From a virus (taxonomy: Duplodnaviria; Heunggongvirae; Uroviricota; Caudoviricetes), in IMG/VR virus record IMGVR_UViG_2909303794_000008: a DNA stretch of 38,381 bases. The stretch is one strand, 5' to 3'. The position numbers and the translations under genes are program-made. Under the pieces are notes generated by a model. The model searched no databases. It was not told where the DNA came from and saw only the letters and a program-made list of their open reading frames with translations. Positions 935 through 38,381 of this stretch are shown in pieces (positions within the stretch are counted from its first letter, which is position 1; every line of letters starts with the position of its first letter).

Positions 935-2620
935 GTGAATATAAACGTCGCCGAATTGTTAAATGGGAATTACATTCTGTTATTATTTGTGGTCCTCGCG
1001 CTTGGGCTATGTCTCGGAAAGTTACGACTTGGTTCGATCCAACTGGGTAATTCCATTGGCGTTTTAGTCGTATCGCTGTTATTAGGCCAACAACATTTCA
1101 GCATTAACACCGATGCGCTTAATCTTGGCTTTATGCTGTTTATTTTCTGTGTTGGGGTTGAAGCCGGACCGAACTTTTTTTCCATTTTTTTTCGCGATGG
1201 GAAAAATTACCTAATGTTAGCACTGGTGATGGTTGGCAGTGCGCTGGTGATCGCCTTAGGGTTAGGTAAGCTGTTTGGCTGGGATATTGGCCTGACGGCC
1301 GGTATGTTAGCAGGCTCTATGACGTCGACACCGGTTCTGGTCGGTGCTGGCGATACACTGCGTCATTCCGGCATGGAAAGCAGGCAGCTCTCACTGGCAC
1401 TGGATAATCTGAGCCTCGGGTATGCCTTAACCTATTTAATCGGTCTGGTGAGTTTGATTGTTGGTGCGCGTTACTTGCCGAAATTGCAGCATCAGGACTT
1501 ACAGACCAGCGCCCAGCAAATCGCCCGCGAACGTGGCCTGGACACTGATGCCAACCGTAAGGTTTATTTACCGGTGATCCGCGCCTATCGCGTCGGCCCG
1601 GAGCTGGTGGCCTGGACCGACGGCAAAAATCTGCGTGAACTGGGTATTTATCGACAAACCGGCTGCTACATTGAACGTATTCGACGTAACGGGATTCTGG
1701 CAAATCCAGACGGTGATGCCGTGCTACAAATGGGCGATGAAATAGCGTTGGTAGGCTATCCCGACGCCCATGCCCGACTCGATCCCAGCTTCCGTAACGG
1801 TAAAGAAGTTTTCGATCGTGACCTTCTCGACATGCGTATCGTCACTGAAGAAGTGGTCGTTAAAAACCATAACGCTGTAGGTAAACGTCTCGCACAACTG
1901 AAGTTGACCGATCACGGTTGCTTCCTTAACCGCGTCATTCGTAGCCAGATTGAGATGCCGATAGATGACAACGTCGTGCTTAACAAAGGTGACGTTTTAC
2001 AAGTCAGCGGTGATGCCCGTCGCGTAAAAACCATCGCCGATCGCATCGGCTTTATCTCGATTCACAGCCAGGTCACTGACCTGCTGGCATTTTGCGCCTT
2101 CTTTGTTATTGGGCTGATGATCGGGATGATCACCTTCCAGTTCAGCACATTCAGTTTCGGCATGGGGAACGCTGCCGGGTTGTTATTCGCCGGAATTATG
2201 CTGGGCTTTATGCGTGCTAACCACCCGACCTTCGGTTACATTCCGCAGGGTGCATTAAGCATGGTGAAAGAGTTCGGCTTGATGGTGTTTATGGCAGGCG
2301 TTGGTCTGAGCGCCGGTAGCGGTATTAATAACGGTCTGGGCGCGATTGGCGGTCAGATGTTGATTGCCGGATTGATTGTCAGTCTGGTGCCCGTGGTTAT
2401 CTGTTTCTTGTTCGGTGCTTATGTATTGCGAATGAACCGCGCGCTGTTGTTCGGCGCAATGATGGGCGCACGTACCTGCGCGCCGGCAATGGAGATCATC
2501 AGTGATACAGCTCGCAGTAACATCCCGGCGCTGGGCTATGCGGGCACCTATGCAATCGCCAACGTCCTGCTGACGCTGGCAGGGACAATCATCGTCATGG
2601 TATGGCCAGGATTAGGATAA
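935..2620 (+). CDS. ybjL: putative AAE-family transporter YbjL (two TrkA-C/RCK_C-like domains)
   Basis: 561-aa ORF with N- and C-terminal membrane halves and a soluble middle; GTG start at 935; recognised as E. coli YbjL by sequence and synteny. Confidence 0.9.
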
Positions 2621-2732
2621 AACTGAAGTTGCCCTGAAAATGAAATTTTTTTGCACAACCGCAGAACTTTTCCGCAGGGCATCAGTCTTAATTAGTGCCA
2701 CTGCTTTTCTTTGATGTCCCCATTTTGTGGAG

Positions 2733-2775
2733 CCCATCAACCCCGCCATTTCGGTTCAAGGTTGATGGGTTTTTT
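2733..2775 (+). terminator. rho-independent terminator (probably ybjL, host side of prophage junction)
   Basis: perfect 10-bp stem cccatcaacc(2733-2742)/ggttgatggg(2760-2769) followed by T6 (2770-2775); coordinates anchored on ybjL and ogr stop codons. Confidence 0.55.
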
Positions 2776-2855
2776 GTTGCCTGAAATTTAAGCTGTTTAA
2801 AATCATGATGTTAGAAACACTGTTTTTTAACGATGGCGACAAAATGGCGGCAGCG

Positions 2856-3074
2856 TCAAAGAGAGAGCGCCACCTGTCCTGATTTCATTGGATGCGGCTG
2901 AACCGGATTTGACTCTTTTGGCGTTGCAATCGAACGAACAAAAGTTTCATGGGTAACAAAAGTATGGCTGCAGTTAATGTTCTGGCACTGGTTGTAACGC
3001 TCTTTGGTCAATGAAGATACCTGAAAACTGCTGCGAGTATGGGCGGCACTTCCACACAGTGGGCAAATCATCAT
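2856..3074 (-). CDS. ogr: Ogr/Delta-type zinc-finger late-gene transcription activator
   Basis: MMICPLCGSAAH...CQNINCSHTF C4 zinc-finger pattern as in P2 Ogr; start moved to internal Met (72 aa) to match Ogr length; located just downstream of gene D as in P2. Confidence 0.8.
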   Translation of the reverse strand: MMICPLCGSAAHTRSSFQVSSLTKERYNQCQNINCSHTFVTHETFVRSIATPKESNPVQPHPMKSGQVALSL

Positions 3075-3164
3075 TTTTCGAGTTCTCCCCATTTTTGCTA
3101 AATTCACAATAATGATACCGCACTATTCCATTTTGCAAACTTAAAAGTTCTCCATTGCGAAGAA

Positions 3165-4265
3165 TCATTCCATTTCGAAATCATCAATCCTCACTTCAAG
3201 CTCCAGACTGGTCGTAAAACCGTTATCCGGGCTGACGGTATGCGTCAGAGTCGTAATGGTCCATTCCGCATCATCTATCGGCTGTTTAAAGCCACTGACT
3301 TTCACTGGCATTTCCGTGTAGAGATCTGCCCGCCCTTCTGCCAGTTGTAGCGAGAATGACGCAACGCCGCGTTGCAGGCGTTCCCACTGCATTTTCGCCG
3401 CTCGTTCGGCGTTGCTCCGGTTGGCATAAGTGCGATTAAGTACCAGCACGTTTTCATCCGTACCCACCAGGTAATCGCCCTGCTTCGCTTCTGGCTCTTT
3501 CTTCTGCTTCTTAGTTCTGCGCTTACGCTTCACCGTGGTGCTTTCTTTCTTCGCAGGTTCGCGGGTATGCAACCAGCTGGCAATTACGCCCGTGTAGGCT
3601 CCGCGATCTGCCAGGGTAAAGCGGTGACTGTCGCCGTCCTTGCGTGTGATAGTGATCACTGGCAGTGGTTTACCAGTGGCGCTTTTGCCCTGCCCCTGCC
3701 GGATGAATAGCAGATTGCCATTTTTCACCGACGCGATGGCACCGTACTGTCGCGCCAGCCGCATCAGAAAACTGCCGTCACTCTCATTAGTCTGGTCTAT
3801 ATGTTCCACGGGCTTATCCGACAGGTCTTTACCCAGCGCCATCTTCAGCTTGTGACGCGCGGCTATTTCCTTTACCACTTCCCCGACGGTGGTCTTGTGC
3901 CAAGATTTTTCACGGCGGGTATTCAGGGTTTCCCGAAAATCAGCACTTCGCGCCCGGATAGTCAGGCGGTCCGGTGCGCCAGTGTGTTCAATCTCGTCCA
4001 CCGTGAATGCCCCTTTCGGGAAAAGCGGCTGCCCCTTCCAGCCCAGCGCCAGCGTAATGACCGCACCACGGCGCGGCAGCACGATTTTTCCATCGGCGTC
4101 GTCCAGCTCCAGATCAAGCTGGTCCGCTTCAAATCCCCGGTTATCCGTCAGCGTCAGCCCCATCAGGCGGTTGTCCAGCACAGTGGTGATATCCCTGCCT
4201 TCAATACTGATGCTGAATGCCGGAGTTTTGTTGCCTTTGTTAAGCAGTTCAGAGCTGAAATTCAC
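3165..4265 (-). CDS. D: tail protein D (late control gene D)
   Basis: 366 aa, last gene of the FETUD tail operon; P2 gpD-like sequence and position. Confidence 0.85.
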   Translation of the reverse strand: MNFSSELLNKGNKTPAFSISIEGRDITTVLDNRLMGLTLTDNRGFEADQLDLELDDADGKIVLPRRGAVITLALGWKGQPLFPKGAFTVDEIEHTGAPDRLTIRARSADFRETLNTRREKSWHKTTVGEVVKEIAARHKLKMALGKDLSDKPVEHIDQTNESDGSFLMRLARQYGAIASVKNGNLLFIRQGQGKSATGKPLPVITITRKDGDSHRFTLADRGAYTGVIASWLHTREPAKKESTTVKRKRRTKKQKKEPEAKQGDYLVGTDENVLVLNRTYANRSNAERAAKMQWERLQRGVASFSLQLAEGRADLYTEMPVKVSGFKQPIDDAEWTITTLTHTVSPDNGFTTSLELEVRIDDFEME

Positions 4266-4747
4266 GACAGAAGCCCTCCCACCGTTTTACTGATATCGCT
4301 TAAGGCTGATGTTGCCGTTCCCTGCAGATTATTCAGCTGCGCACTGAGATCACCGAACATATCGGACAGGGATTCATCCACCCGTTTGAGCGACAGGGTG
4401 AACTCAATCCGGCGCGGCATACCGTCGCGGAAAAACTCCGTTTTAGTCTGCTTCAGTCCCTCAATCACATACATGCCGTAAATCGTGCCGCTGCCTTCAA
4501 TCAGAGGCCATGCTTTCCCCTGTTCTGCCATCTGCTCCAGTGCCAGCAACGACAGCCTGCCGCCTGTTATCTCCGGCATAAGAACACCGGAAAGCGTCAG
4601 CATGTCGTTGTCCGGTCCCAGAAACTGCGTGGACGGACGACGATTTACCCGGCTGTTAGCCGCATGTCGCCAGCTGCGCTGATACTGCAGTTCCTGATAC
4701 GGCACGGTGCGCAGCATAAACACGTACAATCCCAGCACCATCATCAT
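4262..4747 (-). CDS. U: tail protein U
   Basis: 161 aa; 4-nt overlaps with T and D; P2 gpU position. Confidence 0.85.
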   Translation of the reverse strand: MMMVLGLYVFMLRTVPYQELQYQRSWRHAANSRVNRRPSTQFLGPDNDMLTLSGVLMPEITGGRLSLLALEQMAEQGKAWPLIEGSGTIYGMYVIEGLKQTKTEFFRDGMPRRIEFTLSLKRVDESLSDMFGDLSAQLNNLQGTATSALSDISKTVGGLLS

Positions 4748-7700
4748 GCGTCGTATCCCCCCTGATCGCTGTAGTTACTCCTGGCCTTTGCCTTCAGCCT
4801 GCGTTCACGTTCATCAAGCTGGCGGGCCACCTCCCGCGCAATATCCTGCGCACTTTGTCCTGGCTGCGTCTGGATGATGATCTGCGTCGGTGCCTCAATC
4901 CTGTAAACGGGCGGCACAGTGGCTGCGCGACTCACAATTGCTTCTCCACCTTTCGCGGGAAGTGCCAAAGGGTGCAACGGTGGAAGCTCTGCTGGCGCGG
5001 CAGCAACTCCCATCATTCCGGTAACAACGGCAGCCAGTGCAGCTGTATTTCTCCGGCTGGTCACATTTGCCGGGCCGTTAACAATTTCCGGCCCGTTTTC
5101 ACCGACGATGCCAAACTGCCCGCGCGGGATATACCCGCCGCTGTCATACATCCCCGCAAAGCCATATCCCCATGATGGAAAACCACCCGATGGCATCATC
5201 ACTTTACCGTCTGCATTCACCGTCGCAGGTTGCTGACGCGTCACGCTTTCCGGCAGTTTTGCCTTTGCGGCCTCTTTACTGACAATGCCGAGCTTCTCCA
5301 GCAACCAGGAAACGCCGGATTTCAGGGAGTCCAGCGGATGCATGACCATATTTAGCCCTTCCGCCAGTGCCTCCCCGAATCGTCGCCCCATTGCCGCTGC
5401 ACTCTGCAGTTCGGCAGAGGTCGACTTAACGGGCGTCAGCAGATCAGTAAACCAGCCCCACAGCGCCTGTACTTTGTCGCCAATCCACTGGAACACGGGC
5501 TTAAGCGGTTCGAATGCTTCACTGACGGGACCTGCCGCCGCTTTGAATCCTTCCACCACGCCACCAAGAAATGCGGTGATGGGTTGCCAGTATTTCCAGA
5601 CAACCAGCGCCACGCCCGCCAGTGCAGTAACCACAAGACCTATCGGACTGAGCAGAGCACCTATCAGACCAGATACGGCATACAGGGCAACGCGCAGCAT
5701 CGCCAGTGGACCAGATGCCAGTACTCGCAGCACCGTGCCTGCGGCGGCCAGTCCACCGCGCAGTACCGCCAGAGGATTCATAAACATCACAGCAACAGCA
5801 CGTAAACCGGATAATCCAGACCGCAAAAGTGCAACCGGCGCACCTGCTACAGTTTTCAGGACATTTCCCGTCAGTAATGCCGTGCGGCGCAAAGACGACA
5901 ACGGCGCAGTAAGTAAACCTGCGGCGTTGCCCGATGAAGCAAGCCCGCGTCGCAGCAGTGCCAGTGGTGCGCCAGCCAGCCAGGACAACGCGCTGCTGGT
6001 TCGGGTTACTGCTGCCGTAACGGAAGGTAACGTTTTGATACCCAGCACAGAGAATCCCAGACGAATCACTGCCAGCGGCCCCAGCACTGCAGCCAGCGCC
6101 ACCGCTAAGGTTCCGAGGCCTACGGTAACCGCAGCCACCACAGCGGCTACTTTCATCAGTGTGCCTGTCAGTTCCGGGTTAGCTTCCACCCAGCGGCGCA
6201 ACGCCCCCGTGATGCTTTTCACCGTGTACAGAATATCCATCAGCGGCTGGCGCAGCGTTTCGCCCAGGCTGCTGAAGGTGTTCTGCGCTCCGGTTTTGAC
6301 CAGCAACCACTGCGCAGAAAGTGAGTCCTTGTTAATGTCGGATTCTTTCTGCATGGAGCCGAGCGCATCATTGCCCGCTGTCAGTTTTAGCTGGCGCTGC
6401 AGTTCCGGCAGGTTGTTTGCCAGTTTCGCCGCGTCATCGCCAAACTCTTTACCAAACAACATGGTCATGGCAGACAGACGTTTATCCTGCGGCAGTGCGT
6501 TCACCTTCTCCAGTACGCGCTGGATAGTTCCCATCGCATCCTTCGTCATCTGCTTTTCAATCACTTCAGGATTGAGTTTCAGCAGATTCATCCCTTCAAA
6601 GAAACTCTTGCTTTGCATGGTGGCAATGGACAATTCACGCACCATCGCGTTTGCTGCACTGGCTGCAACCTCTGGCGCAGCGCCCAGTGTCAGAAAGGTG
6701 GAACCCAGCGCCGCCGCTTTACGATAATCCAGACGATCAGCCACACCGCCCAGGCGTTGCATGACATCAATGATGTCTGCCCCTTTCGACATGGCGTTAT
6801 CATCCAGATAGTTCAGCGCATCACCGAGCTGTTCAATATTGCGGGTAGGAATTTTGTAGAGCTGGGCGATTTTCCCCAGACTTTCTGACAGTTCATCCGC
6901 TGGCAGCTCAAAGGCTGTTGCCGCCTTTGCTGCCGTACTGGCGAAGGCCAGCAGGTCACGTTTCTGGTCCTCCCAGCTGTCGTCAGGGTTTGCGACGTTC
7001 ATGCGCGCCCCACCTTCAACCAGTGCAGCGAAATCCACCGCACCGTTTTCCATCGGCAACTGTTCGCTGGCAGCCTTGATGGCATCCTGCATTTCATAAA
7101 AACGTGCAGTGCGGTTGCCATTATCGTCACGCAGACCATTGACCTGCTTTGCCACACCTTTCATGGCATCTTCCATGCTGGTATAGCTTTTTACTGCCGC
7201 CATCACTGGTGCGCCCATTGCCAGCCCTGCAGCCGTGGTGGTGGCTCCGGCACCTGCAATACGATCACGCACCTCCAGCGAACGGGCATAACTGGCACGC
7301 GCTGCATTCATCCTGCGCTGAGCTTCCCCCAGTCGCTTCAGCCGCGCCTCCTGTTTCGAAAGTTCCTGGTTATAACGTGATGTTTCACGGGCTAAACGGG
7401 CAGTTGCTCCCGCATCATCTTTCGCAGAAATTCCCGCCCGGTACAGTTCAGCACGCACAAGCGCCGTTTGCTTCTGCAAATATTTTTGTTGTTCTTCCAG
7501 GCGTTGGACTGCCAGCGTTTGCCGACCTAAAGCCACAAGATGCCTTTGTGATGGTTGCTCCATCGCCTCCAGCTCAGAGCTAAGCAAATTAGCCTTCTGT
7601 CTGGCATAGTTCAGCCTGTCGCCTAACTTCTTGTTATCAGCCTGCAGCTTGCGAAATTTTTCCAGGCTGTTACCCACCTGATTGAGTTGCTTTAATGCGT

Positions 7701-7821
7701 CACGGGAGTTTCTGATTGCGCCAGCCAGCTCTTTCGAACTGGCCTGTGCAGCACGGAATGGGCGGGTGAGTTTGTCAACCGCATTAAGAATGACCTGCAG
7801 GCGCAGGTTGTTATCACTCAT
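4744..7821 (-). CDS. T: tail tape-measure protein T
   Basis: 1025 aa, N-terminal coiled coil, Ala/Gly-rich hydrophobic middle, ATG at 7821; position after E/E'. Confidence 0.9.
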   Translation of the reverse strand: MSDNNLRLQVILNAVDKLTRPFRAAQASSKELAGAIRNSRDALKQLNQVGNSLEKFRKLQADNKKLGDRLNYARQKANLLSSELEAMEQPSQRHLVALGRQTLAVQRLEEQQKYLQKQTALVRAELYRAGISAKDDAGATARLARETSRYNQELSKQEARLKRLGEAQRRMNAARASYARSLEVRDRIAGAGATTTAAGLAMGAPVMAAVKSYTSMEDAMKGVAKQVNGLRDDNGNRTARFYEMQDAIKAASEQLPMENGAVDFAALVEGGARMNVANPDDSWEDQKRDLLAFASTAAKAATAFELPADELSESLGKIAQLYKIPTRNIEQLGDALNYLDDNAMSKGADIIDVMQRLGGVADRLDYRKAAALGSTFLTLGAAPEVAASAANAMVRELSIATMQSKSFFEGMNLLKLNPEVIEKQMTKDAMGTIQRVLEKVNALPQDKRLSAMTMLFGKEFGDDAAKLANNLPELQRQLKLTAGNDALGSMQKESDINKDSLSAQWLLVKTGAQNTFSSLGETLRQPLMDILYTVKSITGALRRWVEANPELTGTLMKVAAVVAAVTVGLGTLAVALAAVLGPLAVIRLGFSVLGIKTLPSVTAAVTRTSSALSWLAGAPLALLRRGLASSGNAAGLLTAPLSSLRRTALLTGNVLKTVAGAPVALLRSGLSGLRAVAVMFMNPLAVLRGGLAAAGTVLRVLASGPLAMLRVALYAVSGLIGALLSPIGLVVTALAGVALVVWKYWQPITAFLGGVVEGFKAAAGPVSEAFEPLKPVFQWIGDKVQALWGWFTDLLTPVKSTSAELQSAAAMGRRFGEALAEGLNMVMHPLDSLKSGVSWLLEKLGIVSKEAAKAKLPESVTRQQPATVNADGKVMMPSGGFPSWGYGFAGMYDSGGYIPRGQFGIVGENGPEIVNGPANVTSRRNTAALAAVVTGMMGVAAAPAELPPLHPLALPAKGGEAIVSRAATVPPVYRIEAPTQIIIQTQPGQSAQDIAREVARQLDERERRLKAKARSNYSDQGGYDA

Positions 7822-8250
7822 CGTTGGCCCCGCATCTCTGAATCGCTTTATACCGCCATTCCAGCACTTCGGTCAGCGGCATAACGTCAGTAACGGATGG
7901 CGGCCAGTGAAAAATGGTGGCGATATCTGCCACCAGATCGTCAACCGTCAGGCTGTCGGTAAACCGGCAAGCACCGACTTCTTCAACAAAAAAGTGACAA
8001 CCTCAACCGACATGGCTGTGAGATCTGCCGGGTCCATCTCTGCGATTTCCTGTGCAGTCAGTGCCGGACTGGAGATGCGGGGGATCACGGTCATCATCGC
8101 GTTCACATCCATATCCATAATGGCCTGCAGGCGTGTGCCGCGCAGCGCACCAGACTGCGGTTTACGCAGCACAATTTCGGTGATTTCTGTTTTACCGCGC
8201 TTGATGGGGGTATCCAGTTGAATGGTCTTTTCAGTCTGCTTATCGCTCAT
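7814..8250 (-). CDS. tail assembly chaperone E+E' (product of programmed -1 frameshift)
   Basis: slippery heptamer T TTT TTG at 7987-7993 in frame (codons ACT TTT TTG); the -1 frame stays open for 57 codons to TGA at 7814-7816, overlapping the T start (minus-strand ATGAGTGA). Confidence 0.65.
7948..8250 (-). CDS. E: tail assembly chaperone E
   Basis: 100 aa ORF, ATG at 8250 preceded by AGGA; between FII and T as in P2. Confidence 0.8.
   Translation of the reverse strand: MSDKQTEKTIQLDTPIKRGKTEITEIVLRKPQSGALRGTRLQAIMDMDVNAMMTVIPRISSPALTAQEIAEMDPADLTAMSVEVVTFLLKKSVLAGLPTA
7987..7993 (-). other. -1 ribosomal frameshift slippery site (TTTTTTG)
   Basis: minus-strand TTTTTTG 13 codons before the E stop; coordinates anchored on E and T ORF ends. 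Confidence 0.65.
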
Positions 8251-8304
8251 TTTGCTGTCCTGTAAATTGGGTTCTGGCGCGGCATTCCGCGCCGTTCAGA
8301 TACA

Positions 8305-8820
8305 TCAGAGGCCGAGTGCGTTGCGGTGCGCTTCCATCAGGTCCACACCGTCCACAATTTCCACCATGTTGATAAGGTCCACTTCATAGAGCACCTCACC
8401 ATTGATGGTCAGCTTCGCGTAGCTGTTGGTACTGGTCACTTTGGTGGTGTTGCTTTCGCCCGTCTTCCACTCACCAGAGTCAACTTCTTTGTGACGTCCA
8501 CGCACCACAAGCTCCACGGCCTGCACTTCCCCGGTATCGTCACGCTGGATAGAGCCGGTAAAGCGCAACTGGATGCCATCCACCGTGGCTTTGCCCATCT
8601 GCTTAAACAGCAGCAGTTCAGTACCACCAATGGAAAATTCTGTGTCCAGCGCACTGTCATCAAGCCCCAGATCCACATCCACTGCACCTGGCATTCCGCC
8701 GCCGCGATACTTCTCATATTTGCGGGTGAATTTCGGCAGCGTCAGCGACTCTACGATCCCCTGCCAGTTGTTCCCGTCGTTAAACAGGTTCAGATGTTTT
8801 AATTTGCGTGGTAAAGCCAT
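8305..8820 (-). CDS. FII: tail tube protein FII
   Basis: 171 aa; P2 gpFII-like size and position downstream of FI. Confidence 0.9.
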   Translation of the reverse strand: MALPRKLKHLNLFNDGNNWQGIVESLTLPKFTRKYEKYRGGGMPGAVDVDLGLDDSALDTEFSIGGTELLLFKQMGKATVDGIQLRFTGSIQRDDTGEVQAVELVVRGRHKEVDSGEWKTGESNTTKVTSTNSYAKLTINGEVLYEVDLINMVEIVDGVDLMEAHRNALGL

Positions 8821-8829
8821 GTTGTCCCC

Positions 8830-10002
8830 TTACGCGCTGACCTGGCTGGCAAAATTCACCAGATACTGATCGGTGATGCGCTGGCGCAGCATCAGATTTT
8901 CAAGTGGCGGCACTGGCGTGTAGTCGTAGTCGATGGTGAGCTTCCCGGCTTTCAGCGTGTCTTTATCGTTCACCGACTCGTCCAGCCAGCAATCACCACC
9001 AATGAGATAGCCCTGACTGACCAGGCTGCGCATTTTGGCGCGGATACCTTCGATAATGTCGCGGGCCAGCGACTGGTTCAGCGGTTTGTCCACCGCCCAC
9101 ATGTGCGCTTCTGCCATCGTGTCCATCAGCACCTGCGCCGTGCGGGTGTAGTTTTCGAAGGCAAAGAGCGGATCATCGCTCAGACAGCGGGAACCCCAGA
9201 AGCGAAAACCATCCTTGCGCACAAGCGTGGTGACGTCGTTCTGGTTCAGCAGACCTGCATCGGTTGCCGGGTCCTGCAGATCCCAGAACACATCTGCAGA
9301 AATTCCGGTGACACCGTTCACGCCCACGTTGGACAGGCTTTTGTGCCATCCGGTTTGCTCGTCAATTTTGGCGCGCAGACCAAGCGCACGGGCGGTGGCA
9401 TATGCCGTTGCTTCGGCATTCAGCACAGTGTCCCAGCCAGTAAAGTCAGGCCAGATCAGCATCCCTTCGCGCTGGCTAAAGTTTTCACGGTAAGTGATCG
9501 CCTCCTGTACCGTCTTGCAGCCATATGCTGACAGGTAAGCAAATCCACGCAGGCTTTGCGCCACGCTCAGCAACTCAGTAGCTACCGCCTTGGTGTCGTG
9601 GCCTGGCACGCCGAGAATGCGCGGTTTAACGCCGAGCTGTGACTGGGCAGATAACAGGGCTTTCATACCTGTTTTTTTACCTTCAGCAGTCACTGCGCCG
9701 ATGATATTGGTCGTGGTTTCGTCTTCCGTTTCACCCTGCGGCACACGCACAACAACGGTCACGGGTTTTGCCTGGTCAGCGATGGCATCCAGCGAACGGG
9801 CCAGCGTACCGGACTCACCCGCTTTACCGCTGGCAGTAAGCACATCAGTGATCAGCACGGGTTTATTAAGAGGGAACATTTTTGCATCGGCATCATCGCC
9901 CGTGCAGACCATGCCCACGATGGCGGTGCTCACCGTAGTAATGGATCGAGTGCCTTCGTTGACTTCAACAACGCGCACCCCGTGGTGGTAATCCTGAGCC
10001 AT
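8830..10002 (-). CDS. FI: contractile tail sheath protein FI
   Basis: 390 aa; ATG at 10002 preceded by AGGAGG; P2 gpFI-like. Confidence 0.9.
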
Positions 10003-10144: not shown

Positions 10145-10711
10145 TCAGGGAGATTCATTGCTCTTATTTGCCGGAAATTTTCGATAAATGGTAGAAACGC
10201 CTACATCAAAAATCAGTGCAATACGCTGTCTTGATTCTCCGGCCTCGAGTAAACGCCCAATCTGTGCCCACTGTTCGCTGGTCAACTTAGGACGGCGTCC
10301 ACCTACTCTGCCTTTAACACGAGCTGCAGCCAGCCCTGCCCTGGTACGTTCAACTATCAGTTCGCGTTCCATTTCAGCCAGGGCACCCATGACATGAAAA
10401 AAGAAACGGCCCATTGGGGTACTGGTATCAATACTGTCAGTCAGGCTTCGGAAATTCACGCCACGCTGGCGCAACTCTTCTATCAGCGTAACAAGATGCC
10501 GCATACTGCGCCCCAACCTGTCCAGCTTCCAGACAACCAGCGTGTCTCCTGCCGATAGTGTTCTGAGCAGTTTTTTCAGTCCCGGTCGGTCGGACTTCGT
10601 GCCGCTGATTTTATCCTCAAAAATCCGCTCGCATCCTGCGCACTCCAGCGCGTTACGCTGCAATTCCGTGTTCTGGTCATTTGTTGACACGCGTACATAG
10701 CCAATAAGCAT
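10145..10711 (-). CDS. serine DNA invertase (Pin/Gin/Cin/Hin family)
   Basis: MLIGYVRVSTNDQ N-terminus with catalytic Ser, resolvase core and C-terminal HTH; start set to second ATG (10711) with better spacing to the AGGGGG SD; sits 56 bp outside crossover site A. Confidence 0.9.
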   Translation of the reverse strand: MLIGYVRVSTNDQNTELQRNALECAGCERIFEDKISGTKSDRPGLKKLLRTLSAGDTLVVWKLDRLGRSMRHLVTLIEELRQRGVNFRSLTDSIDTSTPMGRFFFHVMGALAEMERELIVERTRAGLAAARVKGRVGGRRPKLTSEQWAQIGRLLEAGESRQRIALIFDVGVSTIYRKFPANKSNESP

Positions 10712-10766
10712 GAGCATCCCCCTGAATAAAAACCGGAGATGATGCCAGTTGCCCGTTATCTCTGCA

Positions 10767-10792
10767 TTTTCATAAACGTTGGTTTGGGAGAA
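10767..10792. repeat. invertase crossover site A (gix/pix-like, 26 bp)
   Basis: ttttcataaacg-tt-ggtttgggagaa; its reverse complement matches site B in 15 contiguous bp (CTTCTCCCAAACCAA). Confidence 0.7.
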
Positions 10793-11152
10793 GCGGCAAA
10801 ACGGGATGTGGGGACAGGGGAAAATCAGATACCGGATATCTCCAACTTTCCATTTACAAAAAACAATCCTCTTAATTTTGAGTTACCAGGAGGATTAATT
10901 CTGAAAGCCGGGTATGGAAAGCTGACAACGCAGTCCAGTATCTGGATTAATTTCCCTGCAGCATTCCCTAATGACTGTATTGCCGGAGGAGCTTTAAGTG
11001 CGGAAGAGAACACAAATGACTATGTATTTGCTCAAACTACATCACGCAAAGCAGGAGGATTAACTCTGGCGTTTTATCGTGGGGGCATTAGTCAGCCACC
11101 AACAGCCAATTCCAGAGAACTTTCTTTCTCGTGGTTTGCGATAGGATATTAG
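10781..11152 (+). CDS. alternative tail-fibre C-terminal variable domain (silent orientation; would fuse to H after inversion)
   Basis: the codons GGT TTG GGA GAA (GLGE) are in frame at both crossover sites, so inversion gives an in-frame H constant-variable fusion; the track ORF 10739-11152 starts outside the segment. Confidence 0.6.
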   Translation, partial: GLGEAAKRDVGTGENQIPDISNFPFTKNNPLNFELPGGLILKAGYGKLTTQSSIWINFPAAFPNDCIAGGALSAEENTNDYVFAQTTSRKAGGLTLAFYRGGISQPPTANSRELSFSWFAIGY

Positions 11153-11153
11153 A

Positions 11154-11594
11154 ATGAGAATTTTTTTCAGTGCATCAACATTGTGGTTTTATGATGAAAC
11201 TCGCAAAGAAGAATATCACAACGGTATTGGATGGCCAGATGATGCTATCGAAATATCAGATGATGAATGGAATAAATATACGCAAATTCCTCCTGATGGT
11301 TTTATATTAGGTGCCACCTCTCAGGGAAGACCTGCATGGATATTAATATCTCCGCCAGATAAAAAAATGGTTATGGATATTGCTGAAACTAAAAAACAGC
11401 AGTTAATTAGCCAGGCCAATGAATACATGAACAGTAAACAATGGCCCGGTAAAGCCGCTATTGGTCGTCTGAAAGGCGAGGAACTGGCGCAATATAATTT
11501 GTGGCTGGATTACCTGGACGCACTGGAGCTGGTTGATACCTCCAGTGCTCCAGATATTGAATGGCCTACGTCTCCGGCAGTTCAGGCCAGATGA
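11154..11594 (+). CDS. tail fibre assembly protein (alternative copy, Tfa')
   Basis: 146 aa directly after the alternative fibre end; C-terminal LDYLDA...DTSSAPDIEWP motif shared with G. Confidence 0.7.
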   Translation: MRIFFSASTLWFYDETRKEEYHNGIGWPDDAIEISDDEWNKYTQIPPDGFILGATSQGRPAWILISPPDKKMVMDIAETKKQQLISQANEYMNSKQWPGKAAIGRLKGEELAQYNLWLDYLDALELVDTSSAPDIEWPTSPAVQAR

Positions 11595-12168
11595 CATCCG
11601 GCGCTGTGCTGGTATCTGTTGCCGTCACCGCGTCAATGTAATCCAGCACAGCGTTAAGCCGGGTTGTTTCTGCCTGCGTCAGTTTACGTCCGGCCTGCAA
11701 TTTCAACTGAATCAGACTGACGGAAGCCATTGCTGCATCAATTAGTGGCTGGCGCAGTGCTTCTGCCGCGTCTACTGCGGCATTATGCTGTGCCTCAGTA
11801 TCTGTCACCCATTTCTCACCATCCCATTCATCGTATGGCGTTAACGGAGCGATAGTGGTCGTATTTTCATGATAATCACCCGGACCTGTGATTTCTTTCG
11901 ATTCTCCTGTTTCGGTGCTATAAACGATTTCACCGCGATGGTCTGGCACATATTCCCATGAGTTTAAATCCATCGAACGGCAGATAGCATAACCCGCCTT
12001 ATGTGTGCCAGGGGCATCTAAACAGGAATATGCAGGGATACCGACACCAATGGCAAGATATTCATTTGAAGTGGAAATATATTCCCGAGTTTCACCATCA
12101 TAGTTATAGACGGTAATATTCCCCGCCTTCGTGGCAATAAGCTCGCTATTTAATACGGCGTTATCCAT
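11566..12168 (-). CDS. G: tail fibre assembly protein G (active orientation)
   Basis: 200 aa directly after H (1-nt TAATG overlap); C-terminal LDYIDA...DTSTAPDVIWP motif. Confidence 0.8.
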   Translation of the reverse strand: MDNAVLNSELIATKAGNITVYNYDGETREYISTSNEYLAIGVGIPAYSCLDAPGTHKAGYAICRSMDLNSWEYVPDHRGEIVYSTETGESKEITGPGDYHENTTTIAPLTPYDEWDGEKWVTDTEAQHNAAVDAAEALRQPLIDAAMASVSLIQLKLQAGRKLTQAETTRLNAVLDYIDAVTATDTSTAPDVIWPELPET

Positions 12169-19404: not shown

Positions 19405-20055
19405 TCAGCGGCTGTCATTGCGCAGTCTGCGCTCCAGCTGCTGTTTGTCTTTTTTCACGCCACAGCGGGGATCGAGCTGTAACGCATGGTTGAGATGATT
19501 AAGGGCAGACGCCGGATTGCTTTCACTCAGGACAGCGCCAATCGCTTTATGCAGACGCGCCCGTGACTGGTCCGGCATATCCATACCGTCTGTCAGCTCC
19601 AGGGTCTGCAGCAACAGATCGGCATCAAAACCGGTGGCGGCAAGCATTGCGCTCTGGGCTGCATCTGCCATTTCCTCTGCCAGCACGGTCTGCACGTTGC
19701 GGTTACCTAACGGCATCACCCAGCCATGACGCAGGGCGTGACGCCCGATCTCCAGCGCCCCGGCATAATCTCCGGCATCAATGCGCCACAGCATCACGTA
19801 CATCAGCACGTCATCCTGTTGAGCGCCTCCGGCAGCCAGGACACCCTCCGCCCAGGCGGCGTACTTCGGCAGCAGCTCCACCTTGATTTCCGCTTTTTTG
19901 ACCGTGGACTGAACGCCCTTGAGACGGCGGCGGTCTTCCGCCAGTTGCAGCAGCATCAGGTCATAGCCCGACGCGTGGCGAACGCTGCCGCCCTCGCGGG
20001 CGGCCTGTTCAGCCTGAACGCGCAGGCGATGCTGCCGTGCGGGACTCAGGCTCAT
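19405..20055 (-). CDS. M: terminase small (endonuclease) subunit M
   Basis: 216 aa; ATG at 20055; resembles P2 gpM. Confidence 0.8.
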   Translation of the reverse strand: MSLSPARQHRLRVQAEQAAREGGSVRHASGYDLMLLQLAEDRRRLKGVQSTVKKAEIKVELLPKYAAWAEGVLAAGGAQQDDVLMYVMLWRIDAGDYAGALEIGRHALRHGWVMPLGNRNVQTVLAEEMADAAQSAMLAATGFDADLLLQTLELTDGMDMPDQSRARLHKAIGAVLSESNPASALNHLNHALQLDPRCGVKKDKQQLERRLRNDSR

Positions 20056-24953: not shown

Positions 24954-25271
24954 TTATATACCACATACAAAATTGATCTTAACGCTTTTATCAACAACAA
25001 GCAGAGAAGTGCCAACAGACTTAATAAATCCCAGTTCATACTCTTCTGAATGCGTCATTGTAATAATATGAACAGGAACAAATAAATCAAGCTCCCGCAG
25101 CTTTCGCTTCAATAATAAACCATCGACACAATCACCTATCACAAGCATATCAATATCATTTGCATCGCAAAAACTCTTTAATGCTGACCCAAATACATAT
25201 ACATCCACCATATATAAACTATGATGGATAATAACATCACAGATCGATTCAATCGTATGTTTAAAATTCAC
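24954..25271 (-). CDS. minimal nucleotidyltransferase (Pol-beta superfamily, MNT-like)
   Basis: 105 aa with the GS-X9-DID motif (VYVFGSALKSFCDANDIDMLVIG); GTG start overlapping the upstream TAG stop by 1 nt; AT-rich. Confidence 0.6.
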   Translation of the reverse strand: MNFKHTIESICDVIIHHSLYMVDVYVFGSALKSFCDANDIDMLVIGDCVDGLLLKRKLRELDLFVPVHIITMTHSEEYELGFIKSVGTSLLVVDKSVKINFVCGI

Positions 25272-25930
25272 TACCGTGAAATTCTTCGTAATAAATCACC
25301 CAACTTGTAAAGCTCCACCCCGATACTTTGAGCAGCCTCTTTTGCCTGAGTCGTCAATCGTCCATTAGGATTGGAGGAAAAAACAACATCACAATTGCCA
25401 TGCAACCCTATCGCATCTCTTACAGAACCCGCTGTCATATCATAATCATTCGCAGCGATAATAACTAAGTCCGCCAAGCCACGTCTTTTAAGTCTATATT
25501 TTTTGTTGGTTTCTCGCTCTACAGAGCTTACATGTGAATGTTGATTGAACACTCTATTTATAAACAAATGCTCTTTATCAAGATGCTCAAGCGGATTATT
25601 AGCTCTTAAAGAAGATGCAATATGCCCAAATGAACCCACTCCTATTTTCTTTTGTTCTAGTAATCTCATTGCATCACCAGAGATAAATTCAACACCTCCC
25701 TTGACTGATAGAAAATCAATTTTTTTATTGTCTAGGTATTCATTTATCTCAGGACATGTTATCCGGCCAGTATTGATTGCCCCGATCAAATAGGTGTCAC
25801 CCTGTGTAGTATTAATCACTAAAGTACCATCACCTATCACCTCTATATTTTCGACACATTTATTTTCTTGTAATTTTCCTGCCATCCATGAAATATAGCC
25901 TTCACTCGCATTTATGCTCATTGGATTCAT
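25271..25930 (-). CDS. hypothetical protein, middle gene of three-gene cargo operon
   Basis: 219 aa; ATGA overlap with the upstream gene and 1-nt overlap with the downstream gene; no domain recognised with confidence (weak Rx6H HEPN-like motif RANNPLEH). Confidence 0.5.
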   Translation of the reverse strand: MNPMSINASEGYISWMAGKLQENKCVENIEVIGDGTLVINTTQGDTYLIGAINTGRITCPEINEYLDNKKIDFLSVKGGVEFISGDAMRLLEQKKIGVGSFGHIASSLRANNPLEHLDKEHLFINRVFNQHSHVSSVERETNKKYRLKRRGLADLVIIAANDYDMTAGSVRDAIGLHGNCDVVFSSNPNGRLTTQAKEAAQSIGVELYKLGDLLRRISR

Positions 25931-26622
25931 CCTATAAATAGTTCAGATGCAGCTTCTGGAAACCTACTACCATTAGCATCGGTTAAGCCCAAATGTTTTG
26001 ATTCAAAGTCATCTATATGAACACAAAGCTTTGAAAAAACATTCTTCTCATCTTCACTCATGAGGTGATAGTTTTGTTCAACCAGTCGCTGTACTTTTCT
26101 ATTGTTGGGTAAGATATGAGATTGTACTTTTCTTAACCATACTTCTGCATTTGGATTTTCAGGGTCAACGCTGTTCTCTTGGGTTGGTCCATATGTTACA
26201 AAAATGGTATTGTTTTCTCTGAAGTATTTTTCTAACTCCTGTCTAACAGATTCTCGATTGTCATATGTTTTAACACCAAAGGTTGCATTTATTTTATCAA
26301 TATGGCCGTTTTTCCAAGAACGGATAATTTCATCAGTAAAATGTTCCTCTGCCTTATCAATTGTCGTATGGCAATTAGCACATAGAAGAATAATGTTGTC
26401 AAAATGACCTCTCTGCTCATCAGTTAGATCAGCATTGGTTCTAGGTCCATTATCAATGGCACTAAAAATGTGAGCAAGTTCTCCAATTGTTATATTTTTG
26501 TCGCCAGCATCAACAAACAAAGGTTGCAAACATTGTGGATTTTGGCAAAAGCCACCTGAGCTGGCAAAAAGCCGTCTAACTGTATTAGCGTTTGGAGAAG
26601 CTTTTCCCCTACTGCAAGCCAT
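25927..26622 (-). CDS. HNH endonuclease-domain protein
   Basis: 231 aa; CQNPQC...GELAHI...N...LLCANCH (HNH with zinc-binding cysteines); ATG at 26622 with AAGG SD. Confidence 0.65.
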   Translation of the reverse strand: MACSRGKASPNANTVRRLFASSGGFCQNPQCLQPLFVDAGDKNITIGELAHIFSAIDNGPRTNADLTDEQRGHFDNIILLCANCHTTIDKAEEHFTDEIIRSWKNGHIDKINATFGVKTYDNRESVRQELEKYFRENNTIFVTYGPTQENSVDPENPNAEVWLRKVQSHILPNNRKVQRLVEQNYHLMSEDEKNVFSKLCVHIDDFESKHLGLTDANGSRFPEAASELFIG

Positions 26623-26710
26623 GAACTAACCTTAAAAGTATAGAAATTAGGATGTTAATTTATTACTGAACAACCCTATAAGCAAGCTTGCTAATTGTGG
26701 TGAGCGCGCG

Positions 26711-26729
26711 CTCGTATCCCCGCCACGCC
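26711..26729 (-). other. putative cos (cohesive-end) site
   Basis: minus strand reads GGCGTGGCGGGGATACGAG followed by CGCGCGCTCAC; the first 13 nt match the P2/186 cohesive end as I recall it (GGCG[A/T]GGCGGGGAAAGCA[C/T]); lies in the intergenic gap between the two cargo clusters. Confidence 0.35.
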
Positions 26730-26914
26730 TGCCCGCTTTATGTAGCGGTTTTCATGCAGGCGCATGATCTACGCAAAATCCCACCAGTTCTGGCGTGCCT
26801 TAGCAAAAACGATCCGCAAACGATCATGCGATCTCATGCGGCATAGTCATGCACTTACGGGGGAAGTGAAATCCCGTAACCGAATGACCGCTTGAAAAAC
26901 AAAACTCTCGTTTT

Positions 26915-26949
26915 TATAAAGCACAAAGTCCGCTTTGAGCAAAGCGGAC
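26915..26949 (-). terminator. rho-independent terminator downstream of the KAP NTPase gene
   Basis: stem gtccgcttt(26928-26936)/aaagcggac(26941-26949) followed on the minus strand by TTTGTGCTTTAT. Confidence 0.5.
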
Positions 26950-27014
26950 GTTAATAATTTTACTGACTATCCCTAGTACTTCTAATAATATTGCCTATGT
27001 TAATCAACAAAAAG

Positions 27015-28907
27015 TTAATCAGTTCCCTCAGTAAAGAATTTGATTGCGCTAGTTAGTACATAGTCAATAAAAAACTTTACGTGAAAAACCTGAAAGGAGT
27101 TATTGGCTGCGTTTTGAGTGAAATCTACAGCTATCTCTTTTAGGTTAATCAACCAGTTGTATTCTTCGGTCAGTCTGGTTCTAGCATCCCCATCAGAATA
27201 ACGATTCCGCAAGCTAAATGCCAGTTTCCTCATGAGGACTGGGTCAAGTTTCCTATAGCTTTCAATGAAAACTTCAGGAGGAACCAAGTGTAAAAAAGGC
27301 ACGTTATGAAGATTTAACTGCCTATTATTAGAATGACTCAATTCAGATACAAACGATAAGTTTCCCCTTTGCAACTCATCGCTGAACTGCAACGCAAATT
27401 CCGGAATTGATTCATCAAACCGTTTCTTCTTCGCTATCTCAATATGCTCAATAATGAGTTTGAATTCATCGCTATCCCTGTCAAGAAAACCAAAGCCACG
27501 CCATGCCCTTAATTCGTTATAATGCGTTTGCGCATATTCCTTATGTATATCTTCAGCTCTAAGTCTATTATAATAATTATTTATATTCTGTTTTGTCTCA
27601 TTTATGAGATCATGAACATCATCTGTTGTTAGACCTTCTTTCGCCATGTCCAGCAAAATACTCGCGGTCATCAGGAGTTCACCTAAGGAAGTGATCTTAC
27701 CTGAAAATAGATTATCCTTGGCAATGGCGTACTGCTCATTAAGCATAGTTTCATTAAGTTCTCGATAGTTCCACAAATACTCCCATGCTTGGGCATCGGT
27801 GCTTCTAAAAAATCGCGTAATATCCAACTGAGCGAGAAGTTCACTCGTTACCTTTCCATCACAGATTAGCTCCCTCCAGTACGCACCATCCAGTAACTTC
27901 TCGGTTAATACAGGAGATGAATATTTCTCGACGATCATGTCATACTTAGTTTTGGTACGCTCTTTACCTAAAAACATACCATAATTAACATTGCTGATTG
28001 AATCGAAATCCTCGTAGTTAAGGTTCCCTCCCCGGTACTCTATCGAGAAAATTAACAACTGCTGGAAAAATACCCTCATAAAATCGTCGTTGCTGACATA
28101 TTTATTTCCCAAAAGGGAAATGATGCGTTGTACATCAAGAAAGAACTGCCTCAAGTGTCTTAGATTATTATATTTCGCCGACACATAGATGTCTTCTATG
28201 GCCTGCATATCTTCTTTAAATATATTAGCAACGTGTAAACTGCTAATTACGCCCAAAAAAACATTACAAGCACTATGTAAATCTGACGTTACTTCAAATG
28301 TTTTACCAACAAGCTTTTCTTTTGTTCTCATGTATTCGCTGCTAGATTTCTCGTCATCATTATTTATTCGCTTTTCTCTATTGATTATTTCTTCTTCATT
28401 GGCAACCAAGATCGCTTTGTATCCGTTTACTTCTACAAAGTGGTTTATATATCCAAATAAAATTGGTAAATCTATACCAGCTCTCTCGATATCATCAAAG
28501 ACCAGCACAAAACCATCTGGTTTTCTACTAAAATCGTTAAGATTAATGGTGGGAACATTGGTATTGACATCAACGTCAGATTTATTATCGCCATTGAGAT
28601 CGATCTTGAAAGTAGCCTTAAGCGTATTTTTTAGTACATTTGCACCAAAGATAAGGGCTTTGTTTGATAGGACAGGATGAAGTTGACGATAGAACTCATC
28701 TTCAATCTGCTTAATAGAGTTGACGCCATACAAACTCACTTTTAGAAATTTAAACTCTGAATTCTTCTGCTTATATTCTTCAAGAACTTGTTCAATGAAC
28801 CAAGTTTTACCTGATCCCCAAGCACCTTTAAGCATAATGGCGTATTGAGGTTCAGTTGTAAGGCTAAGGTAATATTCTATATAGTCTTTGATGTACGTAT
28901 TGTTCAT
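27015..28907 (-). CDS. KAP-family P-loop NTPase
   Basis: Walker A GAWGSGKT near the N-terminus and Walker B-like VLVFDDIER about 100 aa later; start set to ATG 28907 (the track start 28958 is TTG); AT-rich. Confidence 0.7.
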   Translation of the reverse strand: MNNTYIKDYIEYYLSLTTEPQYAIMLKGAWGSGKTWFIEQVLEEYKQKNSEFKFLKVSLYGVNSIKQIEDEFYRQLHPVLSNKALIFGANVLKNTLKATFKIDLNGDNKSDVDVNTNVPTINLNDFSRKPDGFVLVFDDIERAGIDLPILFGYINHFVEVNGYKAILVANEEEIINREKRINNDDEKSSSEYMRTKEKLVGKTFEVTSDLHSACNVFLGVISSLHVANIFKEDMQAIEDIYVSAKYNNLRHLRQFFLDVQRIISLLGNKYVSNDDFMRVFFQQLLIFSIEYRGGNLNYEDFDSISNVNYGMFLGKERTKTKYDMIVEKYSSPVLTEKLLDGAYWRELICDGKVTSELLAQLDITRFFRSTDAQAWEYLWNYRELNETMLNEQYAIAKDNLFSGKITSLGELLMTASILLDMAKEGLTTDDVHDLINETKQNINNYYNRLRAEDIHKEYAQTHYNELRAWRGFGFLDRDSDEFKLIIEHIEIAKKKRFDESIPEFALQFSDELQRGNLSFVSELSHSNNRQLNLHNVPFLHLVPPEVFIESYRKLDPVLMRKLAFSLRNRYSDGDARTRLTEEYNWLINLKEIAVDFTQNAANNSFQVFHVKFFIDYVLTSAIKFFTEGTD

Positions 28908-29221
28908 TTTTAGTCCATTTTGATAAAATACATAAACATAGATGGTAAGTAGAGCCAAAGGCCAACTATGGAAAATTCAATCGGTAGTGTACATTGTAAG
29001 GTTATTATTAGTAAATTTTATAGAAATGCCCATAATCTTACAAAATTCAGATTATCCGTTGCGAATTAGTCTGCCATTCGTTAATTAACGAAAGTTAGCA
29101 GAAGAAACGTTTGCATCTTGCACAAAGCAGACGATCATTTATCAAAATGACCTTACACCTTATTTCACTCGTTGCCCAAACTAGCCCCCATCAGAATGAA
29201 TCCTCCTGGGGGCAACGTTTC

Positions 29222-34972: not shown

Positions 34973-35569
34973 ATGTCAACATCAAAGTACCCAAATGAGA
35001 TCAAAATAAATCCCAATAAAGGTGGTAAGGCTGCGATTGAGCGATTAGTCGAAGCTTATGGCTTTACGACACGACAGGCTTTAGCTGATCACTTGGAAGT
35101 ATCAAAAAGCACTCTGGCGAACAGGTATTTGCGGGATACGTTTCCTGCAGACTGGATAATCCAATGTGCTCTTGAAACAGGAACCTCACTGAAATGGTTA
35201 ACCACCGGGCAAGGCCTTAAGCAAAGCTCGCTGACAGCAGCTACAGAAGAGCTTGCCAAGTTTCGCCTTACCGCAGGCAAAATGATTGAAGATGGTTCAT
35301 ATGTCTTCGATTCATCATTTCTTCCTGCAAATCTTTCATCACCAATTGTTATTCAGGATGGGCTCGTCACATACATTTGTGATCAAAAATTTTCTGAAGT
35401 ACTTGATGGGCACTGGTTAATCAACATCGACGGAACCTATTCCATTCGAAAAATCACAAAGCTTCCAAAAGGTATGATTAAAATTACAAGTACAGAGAAT
35501 AGCTTTGAATGTGCATTTTCTGATATTGAAGTAGTTGCTTGTATAAGAAGTACAATAGTTTCAAATTAA
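34973..35569 (+). CDS. cI: CI immunity repressor (phage 186 CI type)
   Basis: 198 aa; N-terminal EAYGF...LANRY...CALETG...WL.TG and C-terminal WLINIDGTYSIRKITKLP resemble 186 CI. Confidence 0.8.
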   Translation: MSTSKYPNEIKINPNKGGKAAIERLVEAYGFTTRQALADHLEVSKSTLANRYLRDTFPADWIIQCALETGTSLKWLTTGQGLKQSSLTAATEELAKFRLTAGKMIEDGSYVFDSSFLPANLSSPIVIQDGLVTYICDQKFSEVLDGHWLINIDGTYSIRKITKLPKGMIKITSTENSFECAFSDIEVVACIRSTIVSN

Positions 35570-37349: not shown

Positions 37350-38381
37350 ATGGCAGTACGAAAACTCACCACAGGAAAATGGCTTTGCGAATGTTACCCC
37401 GCCGGACGTAGTGGACGTCGTGTACGTAAACAATTCGCCACCAAAGGCGAAGCTCTGGCTTTTGAGCGTCACACGATGGAAGAAACCGAAGCAAAGCCCT
37501 GGCTGGGTGAATCAGTGGATCGTCGAACACTGAAAGACGTGGTTGAACTATGGTTCAAACTACATGGTAAATCTCTGACAGCTGGGCAGCATGTCTATGA
37601 CAAATTGCTGTTGATGGTTGACGCTCTGGGCAATCCCCTTGCAACCGATCTCACCTCTAAAATGTTTGCCCACTATCGAGATAAACGTCTGACAGGAGAG
37701 ATCTACTTCAGCGAAAAATGGAAGAAAGGAGCAAGCCCGGTCACCATTAACCTGGAGCAAAGCTATCTAAGTAGTGTTTTTAGCGAACTATCCCGCCTGG
37801 GCGAATGGTCGTATCCGAACCCACTGGAGAACATGCGAAAATTCACCATCGCAGAAAAAGAGATGGCATGGCTTACCCATGAGCAGATTGTTGAATTGCT
37901 GGCTGATTGCAAACGTCAGGACCCAATTCTGGCACTGGTAGTTAAGATATGCTTAAGCACAGGCGCACGTTGGCGTGAAGCCGTAAATCTTACCCGCTCA
38001 CAGGTGACCAAATACCGAATTACCTTTGTAAGAACGAAGGGGAAGAAAAACAGAAGCATCCCTATCAGTAAAGAGCTTTACGAAGAGATCATGGCGCTTG
38101 ATGGGTTCAATTTCTTTACAGACTGCTATTTTCAATTTTTATCCGTGATGGAAAAAACGTCTATCGTGCTCCCTCGCGGTCAACTGACACACGTTCTGCG
38201 CCATACGTTTGCGGCGCACTTCATGATGTCGGGTGGAAATATCCTGGCCTTACAAAAAATTCTCGGGCATCACGATATAAAAATGACTATGCGTTACGCA
38301 CATCTGGCACCGGATCACCTGGAAACTGCATTACGGTTTAATCCGCTGGCAACACTACCAACATCAATAGCAAGTTTTTGA
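37350..38381 (+). CDS. int: tyrosine integrase (P2 Int-like)
   Basis: 343 aa; C-terminal catalytic region HVLRHTFA...LGHHDIKMTMRYAHL; stop at window end. Confidence 0.95.
   Translation: MAVRKLTTGKWLCECYPAGRSGRRVRKQFATKGEALAFERHTMEETEAKPWLGESVDRRTLKDVVELWFKLHGKSLTAGQHVYDKLLLMVDALGNPLATDLTSKMFAHYRDKRLTGEIYFSEKWKKGASPVTINLEQSYLSSVFSELSRLGEWSYPNPLENMRKFTIAEKEMAWLTHEQIVELLADCKRQDPILALVVKICLSTGARWREAVNLTRSQVTKYRITFVRTKGKKNRSIPISKELYEEIMALDGFNFFTDCYFQFLSVMEKTSIVLPRGQLTHVLRHTFAAHFMMSGGNILALQKILGHHDIKMTMRYAHLAPDHLETALRFNPLATLPTSIASF

Follow-up and report, generated by a model that had tools for sequence, protein, structure and literature searches.

A probable programmed -1 frameshift producing E and E+E' in the tail operon of a P2-like prophage

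The virus record IMGVR_UViG_2909303794_000008 of the IMG/VR database (Caudoviricetes), a stretch of 38,381 nucleotides that is called the window throughout, contains a P2-like prophage inserted beside rybB in an enterobacterial chromosome. In its tail operon, the tail assembly chaperone gene E is probably extended by a programmed, translational -1 frameshift, so that the locus would produce the E / E+E' pair of a P2-like prophage of the Fels-2 / Elveevirus type. We give this reading a probability of about 0.93, because the sequence anatomy of the locus, the homology of both reading frames, the synteny, and the deep nucleotide-level conservation of the phased slippery heptamer agree with it. 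On every computationally testable feature, the locus is a genuine representative of the E/E+E' family of P2. The P2-type frameshift is already known, and the copy in the window is an ordinary one. Coordinates of the E and E' features refer to the minus strand of the window unless stated otherwise, and the elements of the locus are as follows.

7948..8250, minus strand: gene E, frame 0, a tail assembly chaperone of 100 amino acids (open reading frame, ORF; Pfam PF10109, PHROG 103).
7987..7993, minus strand: slippery heptamer T_TTT_TTG in X_XXY_YYZ phase, at codons Thr86-Phe87-Leu88 (ACT TTT TTG).
7814..7987, minus strand: 57-codon E' extension (-1 frame) with its stop, the TGA at 7816..7814 (translation; PF06528, PHROGs 1756 and 6416).
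7814..8250, minus strand: complete E+E' coding span, with a predicted frameshift product of 145 amino acids.
8003..8005, minus strand: stop codon (TGA) of the -1 frame, 9 nt 5' of the heptamer; the -1 frame is open from nucleotide 245 of E.

The E ORF starts with the ATG at 8250 and continues for 100 codons to the TGA at 7950..7948. The heptamer TTTTTTG at 7993..7987 is read as AC[T TTT TTG], and its final codon lies 13 codons ahead of the E stop. An earlier reading of the DNA made from its letters and ORFs (the sequence-only reading) had placed an in-frame T-TTT-TTG at this distance from the stop, which is borne out by the codon phasing. Since codons 86 to 88 of E are ACT TTT TTG, the heptamer sits in the phase needed for tandem -1 slippage of two tRNAs. 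Positions 7987..7814 translate to exactly the 57-residue extension that had been quoted (VEEVGACRF...RCGANDE), and the -1 frame from 7987 runs without a stop codon for 57 codons until the TGA at 7816..7814. The predicted fusion is composed of 88 residues of E and 57 residues of E', 145 in total. The E' stop had also been proposed to overlap the start codon of the tape measure gene T, and this was wrong: the ATG of T is at 7821..7819, the stop falls 2 nt past it, and the two ORFs share 8 nt (junction ATGAGTGA). Because the TGA at 8005..8003 shuts the -1 frame and the E stop ends frame 0, E' can be entered solely within a stretch of 19 codons, and the T_TTT_TTG at 7993..7987 is the only in-phase slippery heptamer of this productive stretch.

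Both frames of the locus match known protein families. The frame-0 product matches the Pfam family PF10109 Phage_TAC_7 ('Phage tail assembly chaperone E/41/14') with an E-value of 1e-18 and 67.5 bits (cut-off 25), as well as PHROG 103, 'tail protein' (4e-44). The -1 product matches PF06528 Phage_P2_GpE with an E-value of 2e-17 and 62.8 bits (cut-off 23) over the full model, positions 1-37, which spans only residues 107-143 of the fusion. E' additionally matches PHROGs 1756 and 6416, and the alignment to PHROG 1756 begins at fusion residue 85, at the junction of the two frames. Searches of NCBIfam with E, E', and the fusion gave no match, and neither a sequence search of the PDB nor a profile search identified a solved structure related to E+E'.

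The arrangement of the locus is that of phage P2, as the sequence-only reading had suggested. In the P2 record (NC_001895, P2p26/P2p25), a joined CDS for E+E' is annotated at 19430..19857, with a 'site of -1 translational frameshift' at 19685; E occupies 19430..19705, and T starts at 19850. P2 and the window have in common the position of E between FII and T, the heptamer T_TTT_TTG and its phase, the 57-codon extension, both Pfam families, and an 8-nt overlap of E' and T (ATGAGTAA in P2). The slip site of P2 reads GGT TTT TTG. The E+E' product of the window has 48% amino-acid identity to that of P2 and 89% to that of Fels-2. E is 100 residues long in the window and 91 in P2, the fusion is 145 and 142 residues long, respectively, and 12 frame-0 residues follow the heptamer in the window as opposed to 6 in P2. 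Frameshifting of P2 at TTTTTTG yields the 91-residue E and the 142-residue E+E' from one start site, and takes place without a downstream hairpin (PMC3091744). Likewise, no downstream hairpin is detectable at the slip site in the window. Christie and colleagues reportedly measured about 10% frameshifting in P2 in 2002 and found E' to be essential.

The relationship to Fels-2, Klebsiella phage 4LV2017, and Escherichia phage Cartapus (Felsduovirus / Elveevirus, Peduoviridae) is closer, with 87-98% identity to the window. Cartapus and 4LV2017 are the closest named relatives, at approximately 98% nucleotide identity, and Fels-2 has 87% amino-acid identity. The heptamer and its 57-nt context are identical in Cartapus, and in Fels-2 the heptamer is the same and the next 38 nt are identical. 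The Fels-2 record (STM2699/STM2697.1) notes slippage giving gpE+E', and in the record of phage KS14, E+E' is given as a joined CDS. In comparison with Fels-2, 4LV2017, and Cartapus, the window shows essentially no difference except at E' residue 52. This residue is a cysteine in the window (RCGANDE; codon 7829-7831, minus strand), which is a minor private variant, whereas it is a serine (RSGANDE) in 77 of 79 close IMG/VR relatives, in Fels-2, and in Cartapus.

The phased heptamer is conserved far beyond these relatives. A tblastn search with the fusion protein matched 419 phage records, 385 of which cover at least 80% of the query; among the 40 matches listed, 38 are split into two pieces, as expected for a match that spans two frames. 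An in-phase slippery heptamer is present within the E/E' overlap of all 16 diverse phage records that were compared. It is T_TTT_TTG in twelve records, T_TTT_TTC in two, and T_TTT_TTT in one, and there are two heteropolymeric cases: Mannheimia phage 587AP1 has G_GGA_AAG, and Escherichia phage 520873 has A_AAT_TTT. The -1 extension has a length of 51-71 codons, and the frame-0 tail past the heptamer has 5 to 23 codons. In most phage records, E' ends overlapping the T start or a few nucleotides from it, and in three it ends up to about 70 nt before T. Among 80 IMG/VR loci with an identical E protein, the heptamer is T_TTT_TTG in 79 and T_TTT_TTA in one. Bacterial genomes were surveyed by a single-protein scan with one genome per species, which provided 73 complete loci with 35-99% identity to the E part. 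All 73 have E' in the -1 frame and keep T_TTT_TTN in phase; the final base is G in 57 loci, A in 12, and T and C in 2 each. Several of these loci come from bacteria that do not belong to the Enterobacterales, such as Chromobacterium, Bordetella, and Methylophilus. The first base of the heptamer is always T, though the codon to which it belongs specifies 11 different amino acids. In a set of 60 distinct close relatives, Thr86 is encoded by ACT in 59 of 59 and Phe87 by TTT in 60 of 60, whereas the synonymous diversity at fourfold-degenerate codons near the heptamer is 0.4-0.6. The lack of synonymous variation at Thr86 and Phe87, next to codons that do vary, indicates that the heptamer is under nucleotide-level selection, independent of the encoded amino acids. 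Of 5426 complete E. coli genomes, about 1000 contain a match to the 701-nt region of this locus, nearly all with at least 95% identity. The locus is a further instance of a textbook recoding signal, which about one in five complete E. coli genomes carries.

One rival explanation is coincidence, namely an accidental run of T combined with an accidentally open overlapping frame, neither of which has a function. When both strands of the window are counted, TTTTTTG is present at 19 sites, and one other in-phase T_TTT_TTG was found in the 21 genes that were checked. This second copy, at 28254-28260 on the minus strand, lies inside an unrelated gene for a KAP-family NTPase, runs straight into an in-phase T_TTG_GGC, and is probably incidental. 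In-phase X_XXY_YYZ heptamers have a frequency of 0.0028 per codon in the genes of the window, from which about 0.05-0.08 are expected in the 19-codon productive stretch, and the expectation for a T6N heptamer is about 0.016. Within the tail and head genes, at least 57 open codons in the -1 frame follow only 5.7% of the codon positions. The -1 product of the window matches a curated Pfam family, and the arrangement is kept across species, several of them not Enterobacterales, down to 35% identity. The Pfam match and the conservation have effectively already refuted coincidence, the probability of which is negligible.

The E' frame could also be reached by slippage of RNA polymerase on the run of six T, which would add an extra U in a fraction of the mRNAs and bring E' in frame. 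The site is homopolymeric, and a few relatives (L097 and L134 among them) have seven or eight T instead of six. Recoding by transcriptional slippage has been described (PMC5009743), and by sequence analysis alone its product is indistinguishable from that of a ribosomal -1 shift. Against this, runs of 6 nt are generally short for efficient slippage of bacterial RNA polymerase, and the run is locked in the X_XXY_YYZ phase in every homologue. The heptamers of phages 587AP1 and 520873 suit tandem tRNA slippage and not polymerase slippage, and the P2 case is described as a translational frameshift in its record annotation and in the literature (PMC3091744). We therefore regard transcriptional slippage as very improbable, and prefer a programmed frameshift of the ribosome.

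E' might instead be a small gene of its own, expressed from the following start codon without any frameshift.

7931..7933, minus strand: GTG used publicly (RefSeq, phage records) as the start of a 39-residue 'GpE family phage tail protein'.

The E. coli annotations of RefSeq, made with PGAP, and several phage records present E' in this form, which is the output typical of automated annotation by PGAP or pipelines of the Pharokka type, and the Cartapus CDS at the locus, 1068..1187, corresponds to a start at the GTG. The part of the fusion covered by PF06528 is all 3' of this codon. The 18 nt before the GTG at 7933 (CTGACGGTTGACGATCTG) do not contain a Shine-Dalgarno sequence. A start-capable codon is absent from four of the 16 phages, which have Ala, Trp, Ile, or Tyr at the position, whereas the phased heptamer is universal. 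Moreover, the peptide encoded in the -1 frame between the heptamer and the GTG is conserved, with 10 of 18 residues equal to those of P2 (VxExGAxxFxxxLxVDDL), and the alignment to PHROG 1756 starts from the junction. In P2, synthesis of E+E' begins at the E start site and involves a -1 frameshift (PMC3091744). An independent start of E' in place of the frameshift is hence likewise very improbable, and the stand-alone 39-residue annotation is probably an artefact.

The probable ribosomal frameshift has practical consequences for how the locus is recorded. RefSeq/PGAP and many phage records give E' as a stand-alone gene, and the joined E+E' CDS of 145 residues is never annotated there. This is a systematic annotation gap, due to which the locus is wrong in proteomic searches and in pangenome gene counts, in about 1000 of the 5426 E. 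coli genomes and in related records from other hosts. The main value of the window copy lies in this point of annotation, since E' is systematically misrepresented.

Four points weigh against the frameshift. The residue equivalent to the GTG is Val or Met in 12 of the 16 phage records, and some independent initiation of a short E' has a small probability. The support for slippage in this particular copy is computational, and we infer the slippage, its efficiency, the junction residue, and the protein-protein contacts described below from sequence comparison. No significant or conserved RNA structure that could stimulate frameshifting was found downstream of the heptamer. Finally, U_UUU_UUG is outside the subset of motifs selected in a reporter study in E. 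coli (PMC4066793), for which the selection was underrepresentation together with more than 0.1% frameshifting in the absence of stimulators.

Candidate stimulatory elements were sought on both sides of the heptamer. The 87 nt 3' of it have a folding z-score of -2.1, which becomes -0.5 when the heptamer is included, and the 55 nt downstream of the heptamer in 16 homologues have z-scores from -1.2 to +1.1 and no common fold. A downstream RNA structure was rejected as a stimulator based on these z-scores and on the absence of a shared fold, in agreement with the description of P2 (PMC3091744). The heptamers of E. coli dnaX and of IS911/IS3 are also of the X_XXY_YYZ type that enables tandem slippage in bacterial mRNA, but these systems have a downstream hairpin or pseudoknot, none of which is detectable in the window. 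They also contain an upstream Shine-Dalgarno-like element, which is a proven stimulator (PMC4066793), and a similar motif is present in E.

8001..8004, minus strand: Shine-Dalgarno-like GAGG, 7 nt 5' of the heptamer, a candidate frameshift stimulator (from the sequence).

With the list of Shine-Dalgarno-like motifs taken from PMC4066793, such a motif was found near the heptamer in 62 of 79 distinct homologous contexts, compared to 7.5% of background windows from the same genes. It is positioned 4-13 nt before the first base of the heptamer, and the spacing is 4 nt in 37 of the 62. The motif overlaps conserved Glu-Val-Val codons, by which the enrichment is confounded. Additional synonymous constraint on GAGG was considered and rejected: Glu83 is encoded by GAG in 59 of 60 close relatives, but several other Glu and Gln codons of E are equally invariant, Val84 varies between GTT and GTG, and the synonymous sites of the motif are no more constrained than other codons. 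That GAGG or GGTGG pairs with the tail of 16S rRNA and raises slippage on U_UUU_UUG, as an upstream stimulator that has escaped recognition, is therefore a tentative suggestion, and we consider it rather unlikely. If it were true, the upstream element would explain the efficiency of about 10% said to have been found for P2 without a downstream structure. That U_UUU_UUG, which the reporter study did not select, is so deeply conserved with no downstream structure to accompany it poses a small mechanistic question, namely what sets the ratio of E to E+E'.

A terminator-like hairpin (UGGUGGC-AGAUAUC-GCCACCA followed by five U; 7915-7935, minus strand) is located inside E', 12 nt past the E stop. 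Its stem is kept in most relatives from the Fels-2 clade, including variants with G-U pairs and a Providencia sequence (L132) in which two synonymous changes compensate each other (GGUCGC/GCGACC). The U-run is often broken. The hairpin is weak or absent in P2 and in distant relatives. It was rejected as a part of the frameshift signal, because it is 51 nt downstream, which is too far to stimulate the slip site, and is restricted to one clade.

The predicted expression of the locus can be described as follows. Most ribosomes would translate frame 0 to the stop at 7950..7948 and produce the 100-residue chaperone E. A minority of ribosomes would slip by -1 at ACU UUU UUG, with tRNA-Phe on UUU in the P site and tRNA-Leu on UUG in the A site. 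The two tRNAs would re-pair to U-UUU-UU, after which the ribosomes would read on for 57 codons in the -1 frame and stop 8 nt into T. The resulting E+E' of 145 residues would have its first 88 residues in common with E, and a low, fixed ratio of E+E' to E would be hard-wired in the mRNA. By analogy with proteins G and GT of phage lambda (PMC5009743), the shared E part may bind and coat the tape measure protein, and the E' domain may recruit the tail tube protein.

The sequence-only reading had likened the locus to lambda G/GT as well as to P2. The similarity holds for the arrangement and function as they are known from the literature (PMC5009743, PMC3091744), and we treat it as an analogy only. 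In lambda, as in the window, the chaperone gene has the major tail (tube) gene on one side and the tape measure gene on the other, and an infrequent -1 frameshift close to its 3' end produces a fusion with a common N-terminus, in a fixed ratio that is needed for tail assembly (PMC5009743). The mechanism of lambda G/GT has been described, and the frameshift efficiency of P2 is 2-3 times that of lambda (PMC5009743). The lambda tail is non-contractile, unlike tails of the P2 type. The slippery sequence of lambda is G_GGA_AAG. The abstract of the 2002 paper by Christie and colleagues reportedly describes a lack of similarity between the tail proteins of lambda and P2.

The genes around E form a continuous block of tail genes.

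8830..10002, minus strand: gene FI, tail sheath protein (Pfam PF04984, PF17482, PF22671).
8305..8820, minus strand: gene FII, tail tube protein, directly 5' of E (Pfam PF04985, 9e-60).
4744..7821, minus strand: gene T, tail tape measure protein of 1025 amino acids (Pfam PF10145).
4262..4747, minus strand: gene U (Pfam PF06995, 2e-44).
3165..4265, minus strand: gene D (Pfam PF05954, 3e-27).

Together with E, which is positioned between FII and T, they constitute six consecutive ORFs on the minus strand (10002 to 3165), in the order FI-FII-E-T-U-D according to their Pfam matches. The block is the FETUD operon of P2, which U and D complete. The 54-nt gap between FII and E contains a perfect GC-rich hairpin with a stem of 7 bp and no U-run (GGCGCGG-AAUG-CCGCGCC; 8276-8293, minus strand), and a terminator is annotated at the corresponding position of the FII-E gap in the record of a Mannheimia phage. 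The hairpin could lower the expression of E-T-U-D relative to that of the sheath and tube proteins, or stabilize the upstream mRNA.

Upstream of FI, a Hin/Gin/Cin-type serine recombinase with Resolvase and HTH_7 domains is encoded at 10145..10717 on the minus strand. Next to it are two opposed ORFs, 10739..11594 on the plus strand and 11566..12168 on the minus strand, which resemble genes for a tail fibre and for tail-fibre assembly. The recombinase and the opposed ORFs probably constitute an invertible switch of host range.

The gene for the small RNA RybB (Rfam RF00110, 105 bits) is at 2700..2778 on the plus strand, about 80 nt from the prophage end, and is followed by an ogr-like zinc-finger ORF (2856..3107, minus strand) and then by the gene for gpD. 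Host genes similar to ybjL and ybjM are at the left of the window, and the integrase is at the opposite end (37350..38381). The attachment site of the prophage is probably the 3' end of rybB.

Two regions of the prophage carry genes related to known or candidate defence systems. A protein of 558 residues with DUF4041 and T5orf172/MUG113 domains (35590-37266, plus strand) matches the PADLOC model PD-Lambda-1 with an E-value of 4e-120. Its gene is inserted so that it separates the integrase from a CI-type repressor (34973..35569), and it is likely to be a prophage-borne anti-phage defence gene. A second block of cargo genes (24954-28958, minus strand) adjoins the portal gene, at a place equal to the position of the old/tin accessory genes of P2. 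It includes the KAP-family P-loop NTPase mentioned above (27015..28958; PADLOC candidate PDC-S49, 4e-160), an HNH-like protein (25927..26622; similar to PDC-M68A, 2e-29), and two ORFs without a family match, at 25271..25930 and 24954..25271.

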